From NCBI RefSeq assembly GCF_006345805.1, contig NC_042999.1:115692001-115756000 (forward strand): a stretch of DNA of 64,000 nt, read 5' to 3'. The translations under genes and the position numbers were made by a program. The DNA is from Octopus sinensis (taxonomy: Eukaryota). Below, piece after piece: positions 34,867 through 64,000 of the stretch (the stretch's first letter is position 1; each line of letters starts with the position of its first letter). Under the pieces are notes generated by a model. That model was not told the DNA's origin. It did not search any database and worked only from the letters and a program-made list of their open reading frames with translations.

Positions 34867-37126
34867 TTATTGTCTGGCCTATTCGCATCTATCTTTCTGT
34901 CAGTTCGAATGGTGAAGTTCCAGAGGAGTGAGATGTAATCCTTTTCAAGCACTGGAGGTGGTTTGTGTTCCCACCAGTTTTTATCATAGGACATGTCCAG
35001 GTTTTTGCAAATTACCCAGTGAATATATTGTGCAGCTCTATCATGCCTGTTGGGATACTCTGTACGCGCAAGAAGACTGCACTTGGAGACAACATGATCA
35101 ATGGTTTTATTTTGTTGTTGACATACGCGACAGGTTGTGCTTTGCCGTTTTTTAATGTGTTGGCCTAGTAGTTCTTTGTAGGTAGGCATTGATCTTGGGC
35201 TGCTATGATAAACCCTTCTGTTTCAGATTTTAAGCCAGAGGCCATTAGCCATTGATGGATAAGGCTTTGTCAACATCGGCACTATTCGCTCTCTTTGGGT
35301 ATTTGCCATTGAGAGGTTTTACTTGCCATTTATCATTCAGAATATCTAAGGCAGCAGTTTTAGCACGGATTTACATGTGCTTAGCTTTTTCTGCGCCTGT
35401 TTCTCGTATGTCTAATTCCGGAATTTGTTGTATTTGGAATTCACTTAGATATTTTTTTTACCTGTTTTGTTACTGAGCATGATGCTTTCTTGTTTTCATG
35501 TTTTGAGACAAGATTTAACATCCAGTCCTCAGAGTTTTTCAGGTAGGTGTCTAGGCCAATTGTGGCAATCTTCATTGTTATTGCCAGTTGTAAAAGTCCA
35601 TGGCCTCCCTCTTTTCTTGGCATATAGAGTCGTTCTATATCTGCCTTAGGGTGGTGCTTTCTATACATTGTCAAAAGTTTTCATATTTTTCTGTCAAGAT
35701 TAGATATTTCCGTAATTGACCAGTTATCGATATTGAAACTGTAAGTCACGACTGGTATAGCTAAAGCGTTGATCGCTTCGATCCTGTTTCTCGCATTCAG
35801 CTCTATCTTGAGTATTGTTCTTACTCTGCGATAACATTCTCTCCTGATCCTTTCCTTCATCACTGAATGCCTGATTCCGTCCCCTTCAGTTACCCCTAAG
35901 AAGTTGTATCTCTCCGCTGGGTCTAACTCTTTTATGACATTCTGTTGGTCATGGTTAACGTTAGATGTTTCTGTCATTTTTCCTTTGATAAAGGTAGCTT
36001 TTGCACATTTATCGAGGCCATATTGCATTCTGATGTCATCACTGAATTGTTTAACAATCGCTAGTAAGCTCTTGAGATGTTGGTCATTTTTTGCAAAGAG
36101 CTTTAAATCATCCTTGTAAATGAGATGATTTATATTTTTATCAAACATTTTATAACCGTACTGTGCATCATTGAGCAATTTTGAGAGAGGTATTAAAGCT
36201 AAACAAAAGAGGGGTAGTGATAGTCACCACTGGAAAATGCCACATGAAATTTTTACATCTCCAGCATTTAGAGATTCATTGTCATGATCTCATACTTGCA
36301 AACAAAAAGTTTTGCAGAGTAGGCGCTATTTTATACATTTCCAGACATTTCTTAATCCAGCTATGTGGTAGGGTATCAAAAGCTTTTTTATAGTCTATCC
36401 AGGTTATTGACAAGTTTTTGGTGTCGTTTGTGACAATCTTCTAAGATCATCTTATTGATGAGTAGCTGATCATTACAACCATAGGATCCACGTTTACATC
36501 CTTTTTGCTCCTTAGGGAATATGCTGCTTTCTATTAAAAAACTATACATATATTTAATCAGGATAGATGCTAGCGTTTTATACATTGTTGTTAAGCAGGT
36601 TATGACTCTATAATTTTTTGGTTCATTTGTTTTTTCATTTTTTGGAAGCAGGAATGTTAAACCATTAACTAGCCAAGAGAGCATCATGCTAGCGTTGTAA
36701 AGTTCTGTTAGCAGTTCATGGCTCTCTGGGAAAACATTGAACCAGAAGTTAGGAATTTTATCCTTTCCTGGAGACTTCCATTTGGTTGACCTCCACTTTT
36801 GCTCCTCTAAGTAGTCCAAGTCTGTAGATATTCTATTAATCCAAAGGGCCTTTTCGTTGTGTGTTTTTCTTCTACCCAAATTTTATTCCAAAATCCCTGC
36901 ACTTCTTCTTTTGATGGGACAGACTTTACAGTAACTGTTTTCCCTATCTTCCGTAAAACATTTTGGGGTTATTTTTGAACATGTTGTCCTTGAAAAATCT
37001 AACACGCTTTTCATACCTCGCTAAGCGGGCAGCTTTAGCACATACCTTTTGCTTGATGGTTTCTATGGTGGCATCAATGTCAAGTATGGTTTTCATATAT
37101 TTTTTCTTTACTTTTCGGGTTTTTGT
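34867..37126 (-). pseudogene. R4/Dong-like LINE (family 1): RT, CCHC knuckle and start of RLE, frameshifted
   Basis: ORFs 36388-36879 (KSPGKD, PKNYRVITCL, EQKG, QLLINK), 35681-36178 (YKDDLKL, LDKC, YNFLG), 35441-35674 (RLYMPRKEGGHGL) and 34662-35189 (CRVC..H..C, RHD, NRPD); bordered by (TAA)n at 37127. Confidence 0.92.
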
Positions 37127-37219: not shown

Positions 37220-38890
37220 CATTATTATTATTGTTATTATTATAAACTAGCAAATTCATGCTAGTTAGTACTGCAGCAGTTGGTGCATATCTGTGTTACT
37301 AAGGTGTATACAGTATTGTGTTCTTATTTTGCAGAGATCGAAGAGAGTACACACTCCTCTTGCTGGGGGGGGGGTCAATCTTGTAGGGTATATGTTGTGG
37401 GTGTTGTGTGGTTTTAGATTGTTAGGTACTTATTGTATAGTCTGTGTGTTGTGGGTGAATATTGTTCTGAGTTATTCTACTGAATCAACAGTTTGTTGCG
37501 CTAGATGTGGGCTGTTTCTAGCAGAGTTAGGAAAAGTCCAAACTATTGTATTATTTTATTCTTCTAATTGTTTGTCGCCAAATATTGGGCTTGTGCAGCG
37601 AGAATAAGTCCTGTTTCTACTTTTGAGCCTGCGCTTTTGAGCCTGCGCTTTTGAGCCATTTTAAACTTTCACTTTGGCTCACATCTAGTTTAACATGCCT
37701 TGCAGAGTATTAGCCTTGGAGTGGTTTTCTTCCCCATTTCTTCTTGAGTGTGTTTGGTAATTTTGTTTTCGTGTGTTTTGTCTCTTTAACCGTTTCTGGT
37801 GTGTTGCTATTTAAATTTATTGCTCTAGTATCGGCAATTTGTTTTGTATTTTATCGTTTCTTTGTGTATAGAGAAATGTTTGTTTTCTCATGAATCTATT
37901 GCATTTATGAGTCTTTCATTATTTTTTTGTAAGTATTTATCCAGTTCTCCTGTTTATATTTTACAGAAGTTTTGTATTTATTTGTCTCAGGCCACGTCCT
38001 TCTTATATGCAGGTTAGGTATATTTTGTCTATATGTGCTTTAATGCGGTGGCTTCGGTATGGTGTCAGTAGTTTCTTGGTTTTTCTATCCAAATTTTTTT
38101 ACATAGATTCTAGTTTATTACAGTGAAATTGTATTTTATAAAGTGTATGGTTAGCGTATTTATGCCTATTATCATATTTCTAGCATTGGATTCGGTATTT
38201 TGATATTCTTTTAGTATACTTTCCTTAATTGTCTCTTCCAATTCCATGTGTTGTGTTTCAGCAGTTTCATTTCTTTGGTGATTATGATCTGATACTCTAA
38301 TTTCAGTGTCTCTGTCGAGAGTAATATTCTCAGTGCTGGTTAATTTGCTCCTCCATCATATCGCTTTGGCGCATGTGTTTAGTCCCATAATTATCATTAT
38401 GCTTTTGCTGAAAACTATGGAGTATTTTAAAGTTTTCTAATTCATTTTTATTGTAAAAGATTTTTCAGTCATCCATATACAGCAAATGATGCGTAATACA
38501 TGAGAGTTACATTCAGCTCATTATTATTTTTGTCATTGTCACTATTATCTTTTGAGCAGTACTATGGACATTGATATCATTAGTGATGTCACTAATATTA
38601 TTATCATCACTATTATTATTTAAAAAATGGTTATTATTGTTGTTGTTGCTGTTATTACTATTATTGTAGTTGCTGTTCTTGTTATTTGAGCAGTACTATC
38701 GTCATTGCTGCTATCTTTGGCATTATATCCAACTGTTTTATGTGTTTGTATATATGTATATTTGAGCATATGTATATATGTTTCTGAATGTGCATGTAAG
38801 TATATATGTGTGTGTGTGCGTGTGTGTGTATGTGCGTGTGTGTGTGTGTGAGTGTGTGTATACGTGCCTGTATATGTATATGTTTCTATA

Positions 38891-47659: not shown

Positions 47660-49570
47660 ATTCATTTTTATTTCAAGATTTCTTGCTAATAGTGAAAGAG
47701 CCGGTTTCTAACCTAAATCCGAGGCTCTTTCACTGGAATTTCAACAATACGAATAGGTTATTTTTTTTATTTATGTATGTATATGTGCAGATTTGTGCGT
47801 TTTCTTTATGTATGTACTTTCATGCATATAGCTGTATCTCTAAACATGCTCATATATACTTAAATGATAAACTTCTGGAAAGTTTTACAGATTGTTACAG
47901 TTCCTGTGATGGTTTGGATCTTAGTCTTCGAATCAGCTTTCTCATTTCTGATTTTGAGGAGCCTAATTTCTCAAGATAGGTATTTAGGCAATGTGTTACA
48001 TACCCCAGTGCCCCAATAATTACTGGTATAAACCTGAACTTGTAATCTGAATAGAGTAGCTGTAGATTCCTCAATAGTTAAGAGTAGGTATTTTCTTTTT
48101 CACTGATATTTAGCTTTATGTTAACATCCACTGGGCAGCTGATTTCCACACATGTACACAGTTTCTTTTCTCTATCCCAAATTACTACGTCAGGTATTTT
48201 TGTGCTTACATTTTATTGAGGTTTTCACTGGGACATTCCACCAGTACTCCTTTTTGTTATGACTGCTATGGCTTCCACTATTCTATAGGTTCTTATTTCT
48301 CTGGCCTCGGGGTTATCCCCCCGACGGATCTCATTATACAGTGTCCTAGCTACAACATCATGTCTCAACAGTAGGTAATATCGTCATGATATTTACAGAC
48401 ATCTGTTATCAGCCTCATGAATGATAACAGTTGTCAATTGATGCTATTCGACACTTGGTTAAGAGATGTTTCTGAAGGGATATGACACGGCATTCAAAGG
48501 CAGTCTGGATTGATGTTAAGCCTCTTCCTCCTTGTTTTCGTTTTAGGTAGAGGCGGTCTACGTCACTGCTGATGTGGAAATTATGTGTACTGTTTAGCAT
48601 CTTCAGGGTTTTCATATCAATGGCTCGGATCTCATCAAACGTCCAATTAAGTAGCCTAAATGTTGGCATGAATATAGGCATTGCAAGCACATTGTGGGAC
48701 ACAATCTTATTGAATGCAGAGAGTTTCGAGGTCCATATTTTCTTTACTCGGCTGTAATATTCTTTAGTGACACTCGTGTTCTTATGTCTTCATCCACTCC
48801 AAGGTACCTGTAATATTTCTCGTCAGATACAGGCAAAACAGTTAAGTCATTGATGGAGATGTCTGTTTTACAGTTTTTCCTCTTTTCACAAAGATATAGC
48901 GACATTTATCCTGACCAAATTCCTACCCTATATCCTTTCAGAATGTTGTAACCCGGTTAAGGTTCATTTTTTTTTTCTCACGCATATTCTTTGCATACAG
49001 TTTCAACTCACCCACAAAAGAATAGTGTATATTTGGTATTTCTGTTTCATTGTGAACCAATGAGATATCCTTCAGACTTCCTTAACATGAATGATAATGA
49101 GTTTACAGAAAGTATAAACAACAACACAGAAAGGCTGTCCCCTTAGAACACATGACCTAAATACCTATCTTGAGAAATTAGGCTTCTCAAAATCAGAAAG
49201 GAGAAAGCTGATTCGAAGACTTAGAAAGGCTGTGATACTGTATTCTATCAGTGATAATACAATCACTCCTTGTATTTAAGTTCAAGATGATGACCCACGA
49301 TGAAATCAGGTCAGCTATGGCTTTGAATAAGCTCACTGGAACTTTAGCGAGTCGAAGGGCTTCTAGCATCCATGAGTGGAGGACTGTGTCAAAGGATTTC
49401 TTGTAGCCCAGCTACATTGAAATGAGGTTCCTCCTATGGTCCCGCACCTCTGACATTATAGTTTTGTTCATTAGCAGTTGCTCGGCACATCCCCAGACTC
49501 CAAGTTGATTCTTTTTCACATTCGTTTGATGGGACAAGTAGAGTGAAACATGCTGCAGTTTGTCAACAAT
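47660..49570 (-). pseudogene. R4-clade LINE (family 2): RT through RLE, decayed
   Basis: Minus strand: QLLMNK..YKKSFDTVLHSW, GDSLS, GQDKC, YLG, ORF 48415-48702 (DRLYLKRKQGGRGL), RHDVVA, EISCP; 3' end runs into TACA repeats. Confidence 0.88.
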
Positions 49571-59450: not shown

Positions 59451-59979
59451 AAGTAGGGAAGAATATATTTTACAACTCTTACATTACGACAGGTGTGTAT
59501 GTATGTATAAATAATTTATTGTCAAGAAAAACATTTTAAACTACTGTTTGTATTAAAAACGCAGGTGCATTTTCAACCCCCAAACCGTTTGTGTGCGTGT
59601 GTACGTATATGTGTGTGCGCGCGCGTGTGTTATTGTCTCTATACACACATATTTATTATGCATACATACATATATTTATGCGTACAGACGTATATATATA
59701 CAAATACAACGTTCCATCAATCCACCCGTGAATACATCATAGATACATAAATATATTTTGCGATTCATTCTTTGGTTATTTGACTTTATTAATTACATGG
59801 CAGTCAAACAATATATCGACACATGTTGCTGGCTTGATAATGATTTCGTTTCATATGGAAGTTAGCAAATGTGAAGGCTCGAGGTGATTACGAGACAGAG
59901 CATTAATGAATTAAAGTGATGAAACAAAATAAAAATATAAAAATTTATAAAGAAAAACAGAAAAAGAAAATGTTCATTT

Positions 59980-60880
59980 TCCGAGGATACAAGATTTATT
60001 TATCCCTATGCCAACCGGGAATGGAAGTGGGGGTGGAACTGCAGTATTGTTTCGGAAAGGTTTGGGTCTAAAGATAAGGGCTATCTTCTTGGACCCAGAA
60101 AGTAAATTGGTGATTTTTGATGTGAACAGTAGCGACGGGTATGCTTTCAGATTAGTGGCTGTTTATGCTCCGGCATGGACCAGTCACCCGGATTTCTTCA
60201 GATCTCTGGAAGTTATCCTGTGAACGTCTCAACCTTTAGAGCTAATGGGTAACTTGAATGCCAGCTTCAAAGGATGCACCTGTGGGGCTAGCTGTTAGAA
60301 TAGGGGATGCAAAAGCGTCGCAAACCTGCTCAGACGTTTTCAACTATTTGACAGGTACTGACTGGATTTCCTGAAAGTGCCTGTGGACGAACCGCATCGG
60401 GTTATCTAAGTCATATCTAGATTTAGTACTCTTTAGGCCAATAGATAAAGGTAGCATAAATTGTTAACTTTTTAAAATCGTCGGCTACACAAACTTGTTA
60501 TCTGCGCTGACGACTTAGATAAAATTTTTAAGTAGGGACCCGGCTACCGGAAGCTGAACTTGTCACTCCCAGCATGCGAGGCTTACAAAGACCGGATTAC
60601 ATAATTAGATAAGCGGGCGTTGATGGGATCAAGCGTTAACAACAAATGGAAGATTGGTCTGAAAAAAGCAACTGGAATAGAATCCATTAGGCTAAGTAAG
60701 ACAGAAAGAAAAAGAAAGAAAATAGAGGCCCGTAAGAAAGACATCGCAACTGACGTACACGCGGTGAGATTGGCCCTTGACCAATTATTCAAAGCTAAAA
60801 ACGTAGGATGTAATGTGAGAGCTAAAACTCGGGCTCTAAGAAACGAGGGAACTAAAGCCGCTCGATGGGCCGAATCGTGC
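59980..60880 (+). pseudogene. L1/Tx1-type LINE ORF2 fragment (APE endonuclease)
   Basis: GGGTAVLF..RLVAVYAP..DFF (ORF 60008-60223), LMGNLN, SYLD, GPGYRKLN. Confidence 0.75.
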
Positions 60881-60935
60881 CTTTTCCAGTACAGTCCCCA
60901 TGGTTTTTTGGTGAAGCCTTAGTGGTAAATAAAAA

Positions 60936-60993
<58 letters not shown>

Positions 60994-60996
<3 letters not shown>

Positions 60997-61370
60997 TAGT
61001 CTTATTTTTATCACGTGCTTTCACTCCACTACCGAGAGCAGCTCTGTGTACCTTGGGTATGTGCTGTGGTTTGTTATGATGCTCTTATTGTTACTGTACT
61101 GAAAGTGTTTTTCGAAGGATGTGTGCTGTGCTTATTAGTGCTATTTTCTGTTTGTTATGTATATTTGCAAGACCTGGTGTATTTGTTATGCAGTTATGTA
61201 TTTGTCTGAATTTTTTTTTATCATACCTAATGCGCCTACTACGATAAGAATTGTTTCTGTTTCTAAACTCCACATTTGAATATTTTGTCTTGTGAAAGTT
61301 TCTCTGTTTCTTTTAGAGAAACATAGCCATCTGTTAAAAGTTTCTCCATTTCTTTAAGAGAAACACTGCT
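60994..61370 (-). mobile_element. R4/Dong family 1 3' fragment
   Basis: VSLKEMEKL, QKIALISTAHILRKTLSVQ*; same 3' UTR as 6649-7110; (TAA)n on both sides. Confidence 0.88.
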
Positions 61371-61371
61371 A

Positions 61372-61453
<82 letters not shown>

Positions 61454-62385
61454 ATAATCTTATTCTTATTATGCCTTCACTGCACTACCGAACGCAGCTG
61501 TGTGTACCTTGGGTATTTTCTTTGGTTTGTTTTGGTGTTGTTATTTTTACTGTACTGAAAGTGCTTTGCGTAGGATGTGTGCAGTGCCAGGTAGAGCTAT
61601 CTTCTGTATGTTATATATATATATATATATATATATTCCTAAGTCCTGGTGTTTTGGTTATGCGTTTGTCTGTATGTTTTTTAATCATATCTAATGCACT
61701 TATCATTATAAGGATTGTTACTATTTTTAATCCCCACATTTGGGTTATTTCTATTTCTAGATCTTTGTATTTTGAGAGTTTCTTCACTTCTTTTAGAGAT
61801 ACATCATTATCTGTTGGAATTGGCACGTCGATTAGAAGGTATGCTTTTCTTGATGATCTTTGACAACTATATCCGGTCTATTAACTTTGATCTTTCTATC
61901 TTTGTGTATTGGCATAGCCCAGAGTATGGTTGCTTTGTCATTTTCTGAGATCTTTTCTGGGATATGCTTGTACCATCTTTCTTCTGTGGTCATTCCATCA
62001 TGTTGGCATAGCTTCCAGCGTATATAGGTCCCAACTCTGTGGATATATTCCTTCTTAGCTATAACTGGACAACCAGAGTCAATATGATTTCTTTCTTTCT
62101 TCCCCATCACATATTCTGCAGCTACTTGTATTTTTCTTCATTATATGTTTCTGGTGGGGAGGCTTTGGCCTTGTGCCGCAATTAAAATCCTTCAGCATCT
62201 CAACCTTTGTTGGGATTTTACTTTGTCTATTTCTTTTCTGTTTAGCTTATCCTAGTATTGTTCTGTAAGTGGTTTCTTGCCATCGTTTTATCATGGTAGT
62301 TTGTTGTACCAGTTTAGATTTCAGGTGCTTTGCAGCTTTTGTTGTTTGCCCTTTATCTTCATAGTTGTCAGGTACAATCATCTCT

Positions 62386-63015
62386 GTAGTAAAGATTGTT
62401 TGCCAACATAACATAGCAGTCCTGGTTTAGGACTAATGTTGCTGTAATTTTAGCCGTAGGAGACATCGTCTCCAGCTGGCTATACGACACAATCTCTGTC
62501 CTTATATTTTTGAACAAGGGAATCTAGTATCCCCTCCTAGCTCATAACAATATCTGTATATCGCGATTTCTGGGTTATTTCTCATGATCAGTACAGAATA
62601 ATTGCTCAGCTAATTCCCGTTCGAAATATATAGTTTTCAGTGACAACTAATCACTGATTTATAAATTAGAAAATTACTATTTTTAAAATCTCACAACGTG
62701 AGATATTCAGCAACAGTACTTTGTAGTAAAGATTGTTTGCCAATATAACTTAGCAGACCAGGTTTAGAACTAATGTTGCTGTAATTTTAAATATTGTTTT
62801 GAGCTGAGTGGAGATGCTAGATTCCCTTGTTCGAAAATGTAAGGACACAGATCATGTCGTATAGCCAGCTGGAGAGGATGTCCCCTGCGGCTAAAATTAC
62901 AGCAACATTAGTCCTAAACCAGGACTGCCATGTTATGTTGGCAAACAATCTTTGCTACTAAGTACTGTTGCTGAATATCTCACGTTGTGAGATTTTAAAA
63001 ATAGTAATTTTCTAA
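62386..63015. mobile_element. Non-coding retrozyme/Penelope-pLTR-like insertion: 337-nt unit, partial tandem copy and inverted copy, with TSD
   Basis: gtagtaaagattgtttgcc occurs at 62386 and 62723; 62791-63015 is inverted; TSD acaatcatctct (62374-62385) / actatcatctct (63016-63027). Confidence 0.88.
62553..62597 (-). ncRNA. Minimal type I hammerhead (one core substitution)
   Basis: Minus strand: TCTGTA-CTGATCA-TGAG-AAATAA-CCCA-GAAA-TCGCGA-TA^TACAGA. 6-bp stem I, palindromic ATCGCGAT stem III. Confidence 0.8.
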
Positions 63016-64000
63016 ACTATCATCTCTTTCTTGTAGTTTTTGGCTAGCATTAATTTTGTTTTGCTCTTGTTTTGTGGTAATTTTACCAGTTTTCCTTGGT
63101 TCTGAGTTATTTCTGTAATCCTGTAGTAGTTATTTTATAGTATTTTTTTAGTTGTATAAGGCCTCTACCACCTGCAATTCGTTGTATATATAACCTTTCT
63201 GTAACAAGCTTAGGATGGTGTATTCTAAATTCCATCATTCCTTTTCTTGTTTTCTTGTCAAGTTTAGTTAGTTCATTTAGTGTCCAATGAAGAATATTTG
63301 CCTACTAATTTCGTTAAGGATTGACAGATTCTTTTCTTTTCTTTTTTTTTTTGGTGGGGGGGGGGATATTATTTTTCCATAGCGGTTTTTTGTGACACTC
63401 CTATTCGGATGGGTTTGAGGGAACATCAAGTTATTTTTTGTGGTCTCAGAGGCTGCTGCATATATTATTTCATTTAGTCTGGTCATATTGTCGTTATTTG
63501 TTTCTGTTGTGATTAGTTCTGTGACAGCCGGGTTTATGCTTTCTATTATTGTTGCTGTTTTGTTATCAACTTGAATGTTTGGCAGGTACAGTCGGTGTTC
63601 CGTATTGTGTTCTGTGGTCTTTAATTCCTTGATTATACTCATTTTTAAAGAATCATAATCACGGTTTTCGCCTTCATTGTTTTCAATTTTTAGTTTTGTT
63701 CCACATTCCTACCCGTTTATATTTTTGGCTGTGGTGTTCTTGTTTGGTGCATTTTGATTATCATTATGCATTCCTAGGGTTTGGGTTTGTTGTGTTTCGT
63801 TACTTCATTTTTGCTGTACATGTTACGTCTATTTTCGTGTTTTTCAACCTCAGTACTTATATTATTGATAGGTTGTTGATCTATGGGCACTATTTGCGTT
63901 TTCGTGGAGTATTTTTCCTTTTAAGTTCTCTATTTCGATTTCTGATATCTTTTTTGTTTTGGGAATGTATCTCCTTATGTTGACTAGTTTGTTAGGGTTT

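Follow-up and report, generated by a model that had tools for sequence, protein, structure and literature searches.

A hammerhead retrozyme family of Octopus sinensis with two fixed insertion ends, likely inserted in trans by a PLE enzyme

The window analysed here is a 64,000-nt stretch of Octopus sinensis contig NC_042999.1 (assembly GCF_006345805.1, positions 115,692,001 to 115,756,000 of the forward strand). At its right-hand end lies a broken non-LTR retrotransposon, which is the host of the insertion described below (Table 1). An RT-bearing ORF in another locus (L045) shared 74% identity with the host element over 69 aa, and from the RT motifs in L045 and the (TAA)n end the host is a putative Dong/R4-like LINE. 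A Pfam search of six ORF fragments of the window gave nothing above the cut-off. By eye, another 3' end of this (TAA)n LINE family, 5'-truncated and in the same orientation, appears to lie at 60935-61370, directly to the left of the host copy. Other RT fragments related to the host LINE were found at 35516-36271, 37979-38412 and 48454-49154 (-). The broken ORF fragments at 59951-60922 (+), which had no Pfam hit above the cut-off, resemble the N-terminal endonuclease region of another LINE in their motifs.

The original prediction placed a discrete, TSD-bounded insertion at 62386-63015, and this was borne out by the 12-bp flanking repeat and by the empty site. The TSD word was single in 18 of the 19 other copies of the host LINE, with both flanks aligned; in the remaining one, L037, the right flank aligned alone. 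Since the empty site holds one TSD word, and the word was not doubled in any of the 18 uninterrupted host copies aligned on both flanks, the duplication is a true TSD. The inserted cassette had frequent stops in all six frames of a six-frame translation, in agreement with the proposed absence of an ORF, and the 337-nt period was confirmed by the partial tandem copy (Table 1). The part first described as inverted, 62791-63015, pairs with 62386-62553 (168 nt, 90%) and with 62661-62789. In this copy it does start about 5 nt past the predicted ribozyme cut, as had been claimed. The choice of which arm to call inverted is arbitrary, as the cassette consists of two sense arms in head-to-head orientation, with one fixed end each. 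Positions on the unit are given relative to the natural 359-nt unit L019, which was used as the mapping reference, with r1 as the first base past the cut.

Table 1. Features of the window and locations of the sibling families (r, position on the L019 unit; E1 and E2, the two fixed 3' ends)
Feature	Coordinates	Strand	Remarks
Host, broken non-LTR retrotransposon ending in (TAA)n	61374-64000	-	Runs on past the window end
Left TSD	62374-62385		12 bp; best flanking direct-repeat match
Right TSD	63016-63027		1 mismatch against the left copy
Long sense arm, 1.2 units	62386-62789	-	Starts at about r106-110 of the previous unit, runs through the HHR to E1 (r173, tail-less)
Short sense arm, opposite orientation	62791-63015	+	r4-6 to E2 (r236, with tail)
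Tail between the two fixed ends	62959-63015	+	57 nt here, 64 nt in L019 coordinates; arm pairing stops at 62958
Partial tandem copy, 5'-truncated upstream unit	62719-62789	-	Repeats 62382-62452 at 92%, period 337 nt
Minimal type-I hammerhead	62553-62597	-	Stem I TCTGTA/TACAGA; palindromic loop 3 ATCGCGAT; predicted cut AUA^ at 62559/62558; G8>C at 62586
Imperfect rod with the HHR at its tip, predicted	62505-62632 (approximate)	-	From folds of A (L015, L006), B and C; partly present in the window copy
Two hairpins downstream of the rod	62452-62501	-	Best-conserved block across A, B and C
Second copy of the two hairpins	62843-62892	+	
Family B loci	L124:1416-2269, L114:5543-6094, part of L121-L149		
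Family C loci	L105:5950-6270, L211-L235		Arrays up to 3.2 units (L220); arms up to 1136 nt

A single hammerhead ribozyme (HHR) was located in the cassette by reading the sequence and by family alignment. It belongs to the minimal class with a palindromic loop and an extra base after A9, as PLE HHRs have been described. Rfam searches returned no ribozyme family in 62300-63100 (E<=10), nor in the whole window (E<=1) among the best 150 of 182 matches. The claim of one minimal HHR stood, but a core mutation had been overlooked. The core of the window HHR reads CTGATCA, while CTGATGA was found in 55 of 71 family HHR copies; core, GAAA and triplet were all kept in 44 of 71 family-A HHRs. Since the G8C change kills cleavage of the anole PLE ribozyme (PMC11167929), the window HHR is likely inactive as well. 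Both sides of the first stem-I pair (window 62558-62593) were altered from G-C to A-T, the sole such case in 71 copies, despite the loss of G8. Excerpts of PMC4209133 describe minimal HHRs with palindromic loops as acting as dimers; when two HHR copies were cofolded, with an L019 HHR whose palindrome is imperfect, the palindromic dimer was not the minimum-energy form. At least two complete HHRs in tandem were present in some family-A copies, such as L019, L016 and L028, and the window copy had one, mutated; long tandem arrays were absent among the sampled family-A copies. The window cassette is an old, decayed and probably inactive copy of a dispersed, protein-free hammerhead repeat family, called family A here.

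A genome-wide search with the family-A unit gave 2,915 first-look candidates, of which 40 were scored. A 21-nt motif common to family A and a sibling family had 1,596 exact matches, compared to 0 for its reversed control, and the copy number of this non-coding family of about 350 nt is probably in the thousands. The units were 337-361 nt long, the median identity of the arms was 89%, and the L006 stretch had a GC content of 38%. Judged by eye, family A had no clear preference for microsatellite targets, in contrast to the sampled PLEs. Two samples were mapped. Sample 1 consisted of 95 copies from 118 loci, the window's own two loci being set aside; 18 sibling-family loci were excluded, together with L012, L023, L151 and L178 as duplicates and L157 as a supposed duplicate. 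No other sampled locus covers L157, which is a non-inverted copy ending at r169. Sample 2 consisted of 27 of 30 loci after three duplicates were removed.

As mapped on the reference unit, the outer 3' ends of the copies were concentrated at two sites. In sample 1, 140 of 162 outer 3' ends fell into two intervals that make up 14% of the unit, 67 of them in r160-185 (E1) and 73 in r222-246 (E2), and in sample 2 the same was true of 38 of 48. Over both samples, 178 of 210 ends lay at these two sites, about 57-64 nt apart; the samples are best BLAST or pattern hits and not random draws, some of the queries spanned the end regions, and small-contig haplotype duplicates were left unscreened. The inverted copies mostly carried one arm at each site. 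Among the 67 inverted copies of sample 1, 47 paired E1 with E2, 3 used the same site twice and 17 had an end elsewhere; the corresponding numbers for the 21 inverted copies of sample 2 were 12, 0 and 9. Pooled, 59 of 88 inverted copies were of the E1+E2 type and 3 were same-site, and in 26 of 88 at least one end lay outside both intervals (decay, nested insertion or alignment drop-off). The window copy obeyed this two-end rule, its long arm ending at r173 and its short arm at r236. Furthermore, a partial tandem and an inverted 5'-truncated copy inside one TSD were present in the window copy and in mapped family copies. TSD-like repeats (score at least 8), mostly of 11-14 bp, were found at 46 of 95 copies compared to 5 of 285 control boundary pairs. 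The variable TSDs foreseen in the original prediction were thus seen, whereas the circularly permuted ends were not, the 3' ends being fixed at two sites. Fixed ends together with the lack of a conserved HHR had been named as evidence against that prediction; the ends proved to be fixed, and the HHR is conserved in the family.

This end structure bears on whether a SINE-like RNA was moved by a LINE, either the Dong/R4-like host or another one, with the inversion produced by L1-type twin priming on a linear RNA that begins at the ribozyme cut. Insertions target-primed by LINEs can likewise have TSDs of 9-14 bp and 5' inversions, and the short arm of the window copy begins about 5 nt from the cut. 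However, neither fixed end carried a poly(A) or (TAA)n tail in the mapped copies, and there were two fixed ends rather than one fixed end and a variable internal primer. Twin priming yields near-abutting segments, whereas the arms here overlap by 168 nt of the same sequence, and family-A copies occupy many unrelated flanks. The E1+E2 pairing largely refutes this explanation, and we consider it extremely improbable.

The inversion junctions were then compared with the ribozyme cut. In sample 1, 118 junction ends were available from 59 clean two-arm copies; 14 lay within -8 to +12 of the cut (null mean 8.0, p=0.03), 14 in r310-330 (p=0.008) and 26 in r28-60 (p=0.001), the three intervals having been picked after looking at the data. 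In sample 2, which was selected for an intact r310-330 region, 3 of 30 junction ends lay near the cut, 0 in r310-330 and 7 in r28-60. Junction ends at the cut were weakly enriched overall (17 of 148), and the clustering of breakpoints at the cleavage site that had been expected did not hold as a rule (14 of 118 and 3 of 30). Some cut-ended templates are possible, but the family as a whole does not follow the window copy in starting 5 nt from the cut, and the inversion point is probably set by something other than self-cleavage. The base of the predicted rod falls at the r28-60 cluster, and this may be where a reverse transcriptase moving 5'-ward would first hit stable structure.

The two 5' ends that meet at a junction were usually far apart on the unit (r110/r4, r84/r189, r57/r126, r157/r32), and the second arm often contained sequence missing from the first. 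Both observations count against formation of the inverted arm by self-priming of a single cDNA, or of an antisense template, that folds back on itself, as modelled by Arkhipova et al. 2013, since simple fold-back copying cannot give sequence that is absent from the first arm. According to excerpts of PMC3846280, such a route was put forward for PLEs whose inverted junction has palindromes, whereas the sampled family-C copies, described below, suggest junctions without palindromes and arms with independent 5' ends. In its favour, the two arms of one family-A copy were slightly more alike than arms of different copies (90.2 compared to 89.3%, n=30, p=0.03). We regard fold-back as very unlikely.

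Two sibling families had the same organisation. Family B has a period of 361 nt, is about 60% identical to A over the whole unit, carries an HHR with a U3-A8 core and a GUC triplet, and ends at b106 and b163, about 57 nt apart. Family C, with 1,938 candidates, has a period of 352 nt and ends at c170-173 and c216-219, about 45 nt apart; its copies are 96-98% identical, by which measure it is a young family. The two-end pattern was therefore common to all three families, and inverted B and C copies again mostly paired both ends. In family C, the arms within a copy were more alike in 9 of 11 cases. Copies of B and C were found beside PLE loci, and by eye most of them sit in (TA)n. The A, B and C units are colinear and the HHR core was retained across all three, and pairing is maintained in stem I, stem II and the loop-3 palindrome despite sequence differences among the families.

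Compared with 40 shuffles, the fold z-score was -4.9 for the window unit and -5.3 to -10.6 for other A, B and C copies, the family-C stretch having been folded with (TA)n flanks that inflate its z-score. The predicted rod rests on single-sequence folds. In an RNAalifold consensus of an 8-sequence cross-family alignment, stem II and the downstream hairpins were recovered, with two-sided changes in 10 of 42 pairs. The rod and stem I were not recovered in this consensus of eight A, B and C sequences because their registers differ between families. The downstream hairpin block may be regarded as a candidate protein-binding site.

The genome contains ORFs of 775-781 aa that combine RT and GIY-YIG. 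In the 781-aa type, PLE copies terminate in (TA)n and may or may not have an extension of about 30 nt; their HHR-like motif has the same core and loop-3 words as family B. We examined 40 PLE loci, namely 20 search loci and 20 stretches of 7 kb round GIY-YIG hits, taken from the 147 GIY-YIG matches listed of 5029 candidates. With blastn and an nhmmer profile, no unit-like terminal repeat was found on an autonomous PLE in these 40 loci, just separate B and C copies. Candidate unit-like pLTRs at L105 and at L114/L097 turned out to be separate sibling-family insertions. An apparent fusion of family B with a PLE at L123 was a rearranged B copy (L123:1338-1963) lying within an inverted duplication of 139 bp (99%) of the DNA that encodes a PLE N-terminus, in the opposite sense to it. 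PLE families with a C-terminal GIY-YIG were represented by L101-L104, L107, L108 and L112, by L105, L109 and L115, and by L110 and L113, some of them with intact frames of 775-883 aa. Two of these families had distinct HHR-like motifs in the 3' repeat, and L113 had a 1.7-kb inverted repeat. A GIY-YIG retroelement unlike the main PLE families, with a cysteine-rich linker and no unit similarity downstream, was noted at L098:1282-1791 (minus-strand coordinates).

No ORF with RT and GIY-YIG was present in any of the six frames of the window cassette, which is therefore not an autonomous PLE. A PLE ORF attached in sense was found at none of the 148 A/B loci and none of 22 C loci; PLE-protein hits adjoin 3 of the 148 unit loci and look like neighbouring or target DNA. 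These results bear on whether the unit is the pLTR of an autonomous PLE outside our sample of 40 loci, so that the copies would be 5'-truncated stumps and not an independent family. Most PLE insertions are indeed 5'-truncated and keep one terminal repeat, and of 22 TEs matched in Xenopus, 21 were PLEs (excerpts of bioRxiv 2026.07.22.740005). However, a stump should not behave as the mapped A, B and C loci do, where the long arms run 5' into another unit and not into coding sequence, and with no sense-attached PLE ORF at the loci counted above we think it unlikely.

The explanation that we favour, with a probability of roughly 0.8, is that family A is an animal non-LTR retrozyme family likely inserted in trans by a PLE reverse transcriptase/GIY-YIG endonuclease. 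We infer the enzyme, the order of its steps and the role of the fold as follows. A multimeric or circular sense RNA would fold into the rod and hairpins, to which the PLE protein would bind, and the PLE endonuclease would nick both strands about 12 bp apart. From each nick, reverse transcription would then start at an internal position of the RNA, for one nick at E1, about 173 nt past the HHR cut, and for the other at E2, about 60 nt beyond. Both cDNAs would terminate early, often at the rod, and their head-to-head joining would give inverted arms of which one carries the tail; retention of a single cDNA would give a plain or partial-tandem copy. In support are the fixed ends and their pairing in the three families, the type of HHR, the RT and GIY-YIG ORFs of the genome, the (TA)n found with PLE, B and C copies alike, the HHR words that B shares with a PLE, and the slightly greater likeness of the arms of one copy. 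Against it count the unsuccessful search of 40 loci for an autonomous partner, the lack of clear microsatellite targeting in family A, the length of the tail and the inverted copies with an end outside both intervals.

Published PLE insertions show partial tandems together with a 5'-truncated copy in inverted orientation, and the tail is present at one end only, according to excerpts of bioRxiv 2021.04.23.441226 and PMC3846280, the latter giving TSDs of 8-10 bp. In the in vitro assay of PMC11167929, both strands were nicked and extended by a PLE protein, which began synthesis at two internal positions of the RNA that bound the tail; HHR cleavage was dispensable for the protein, and RNA-seq was without ends at the cut. 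By comparison with PMC3846280, bioRxiv 2021.04.23.441226 and PMC11167929, the Octopus copies share with EN+ PLEs the partial tandems, head-to-head arms, one-arm tail and variable TSD, as well as a minimal HHR upstream of two RT start sites. They differ in having no ORF, in a tail of 43-64 nt compared to the published 30-40 nt, and in a first fixed end about 173 nt past the cut in all three families.

Within this PLE-based explanation, the template may be a self-cleaved, re-ligated circular monomer that the same enzyme rereads, with the circle as the main intermediate. Of the arm segments, 48 of 231 were longer than one unit, with arms reaching 778 nt in family A and 1136 nt in family C. Tandem units within an arm were more alike than units of different copies in 24 of 27 cases in A and, for C, more alike in 10 of 12, and they shared departures with no overall 5'/3' polarity (250 and 235). 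The HHR core is kept, in 55 of 71 copies and across the three families, and excerpts of PMC7229834 report related mussel repeats of 350-390 bp as circRNAs. A homogeneous linear multimer, however, accounts for the same DNA data. The original prediction had proposed integration by reverse transcription of a self-cleaved multimeric or circular RNA. What stands of it is a mobile non-autonomous retroelement whose template exceeds one unit or is reread; permuted ends, and an inversion set by the cut as a rule, were not supported.

The RNA data speak weakly against the circular template. About 6% of each of three raw RNA-seq runs from one study was searched for reads matching L006:1480-1836 at a likeness of at least 82%, which gave 2,201, 1,962 and 1,733 reads. 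The two directions were about equally represented, 54-62% of the reads continued into unlike sequence, and the depth over the HHR was about 1/8 of the peak (r90-120). No pile-up of read starts or ends was seen anywhere on the L006 unit in the three runs. The reads look like passenger transcription of dispersed copies, with no sign of a cut or circular species, although the library may miss circles. As such libraries can lose small circles, the argument against the circle is a weak one, and we hold the circular template as a tentative refinement, leaning somewhat against it.

The same reads differed from the genomic copies in their base changes. On the L006 unit, A>G was found at 24-27 places in RNA compared to 7 among genomic copies, and T>C at 11-15 compared to 3, so that A>G exceeds T>C in RNA, while RNA and genomic copies agree in their counts of C>T and G>A. 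G was present at 11 A sites in 26-36% of reads compared to 0-6% of genomic copies. These differences between RNA and genomic copies are likely due to heavy A-to-I editing within the inverted arms.

A bolder proposal, which we put forward as speculative and rather doubtful, is that A, B and C are an old viroid-like RNA lineage that no longer resembles any PLE terminal repeat. The period of about 355 nt, the HHR-tipped rod and the docking hairpins would have been kept by structural selection, the RNA would be circularised via dimeric self-cleavage, and a dimeric PLE RT would prime both nicks at two fixed sites of the circle.

By its sequence, the family is a non-LTR retrozyme as defined in the excerpts used of Cervera & de la Pena 2020 (PMC7229834), with a non-coding repeat of 150-450 bp, a type-I HHR, low GC and a TSD of >4 bp, and its unit size is like that of the mussel retrozyme repeats given there (350-390 bp). 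Unlike those retrozymes, the Octopus copies are mostly dispersed insertions of 0.4-2 units with inverted arms and two fixed ends; inverted arms are not mentioned in the retrozyme descriptions of these excerpts. In the excerpts used of Li, Clavereau, Pollet (bioRxiv 10.64898/2026.07.22.740005), retrozymes are non-autonomous PLE derivatives, those in tandem with at least two complete HHRs being termed 'active'. The same mobilising partner is thus concluded there, on the basis of co-occurrence and pLTR homology in vertebrates and with the mechanism left open, whereas the basis here is insertion-end structure and no pLTR homology was found to the sampled PLEs. Chlamys non-autonomous elements such as MRC1 are similar in being PLE-dependent units with pLTRs and head-to-tail insertions; they differ in being green-algal, in generally resembling autonomous families at the 3' end and in belonging to a clade mostly without HHRs (excerpts of bioRxiv 2021.04.23.441226). 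Retrozymes and the proposal of a PLE origin for them are already in the literature; no earlier report was found of the insertion-end evidence or of the fold shared by the three families. Our search of the literature, supplements and repeat databases aside, found no account of families A, B and C or of end-pairing in retrozymes.

The integration route of retrozymes is stated as open in excerpts of the 2026 preprint (bioRxiv 2026.07.22.740005), and PLE transposition is poorly understood. The short, ORF-free Octopus copies record both priming events within one TSD. In three related families the two ends are strongly paired as E1+E2, which is direct genomic evidence that retrozymes use PLE two-site priming and that the cut does not fix the ends. 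The shared fold points to the hairpin block of about 60 nt and the two start sites, which are testable in the published in vitro PLE assay, and the young family C would be the best substrate for experiments. If the viroid-like reading were true, the three families would serve as minimal natural substrates from which recognition by the PLE enzyme could be defined.
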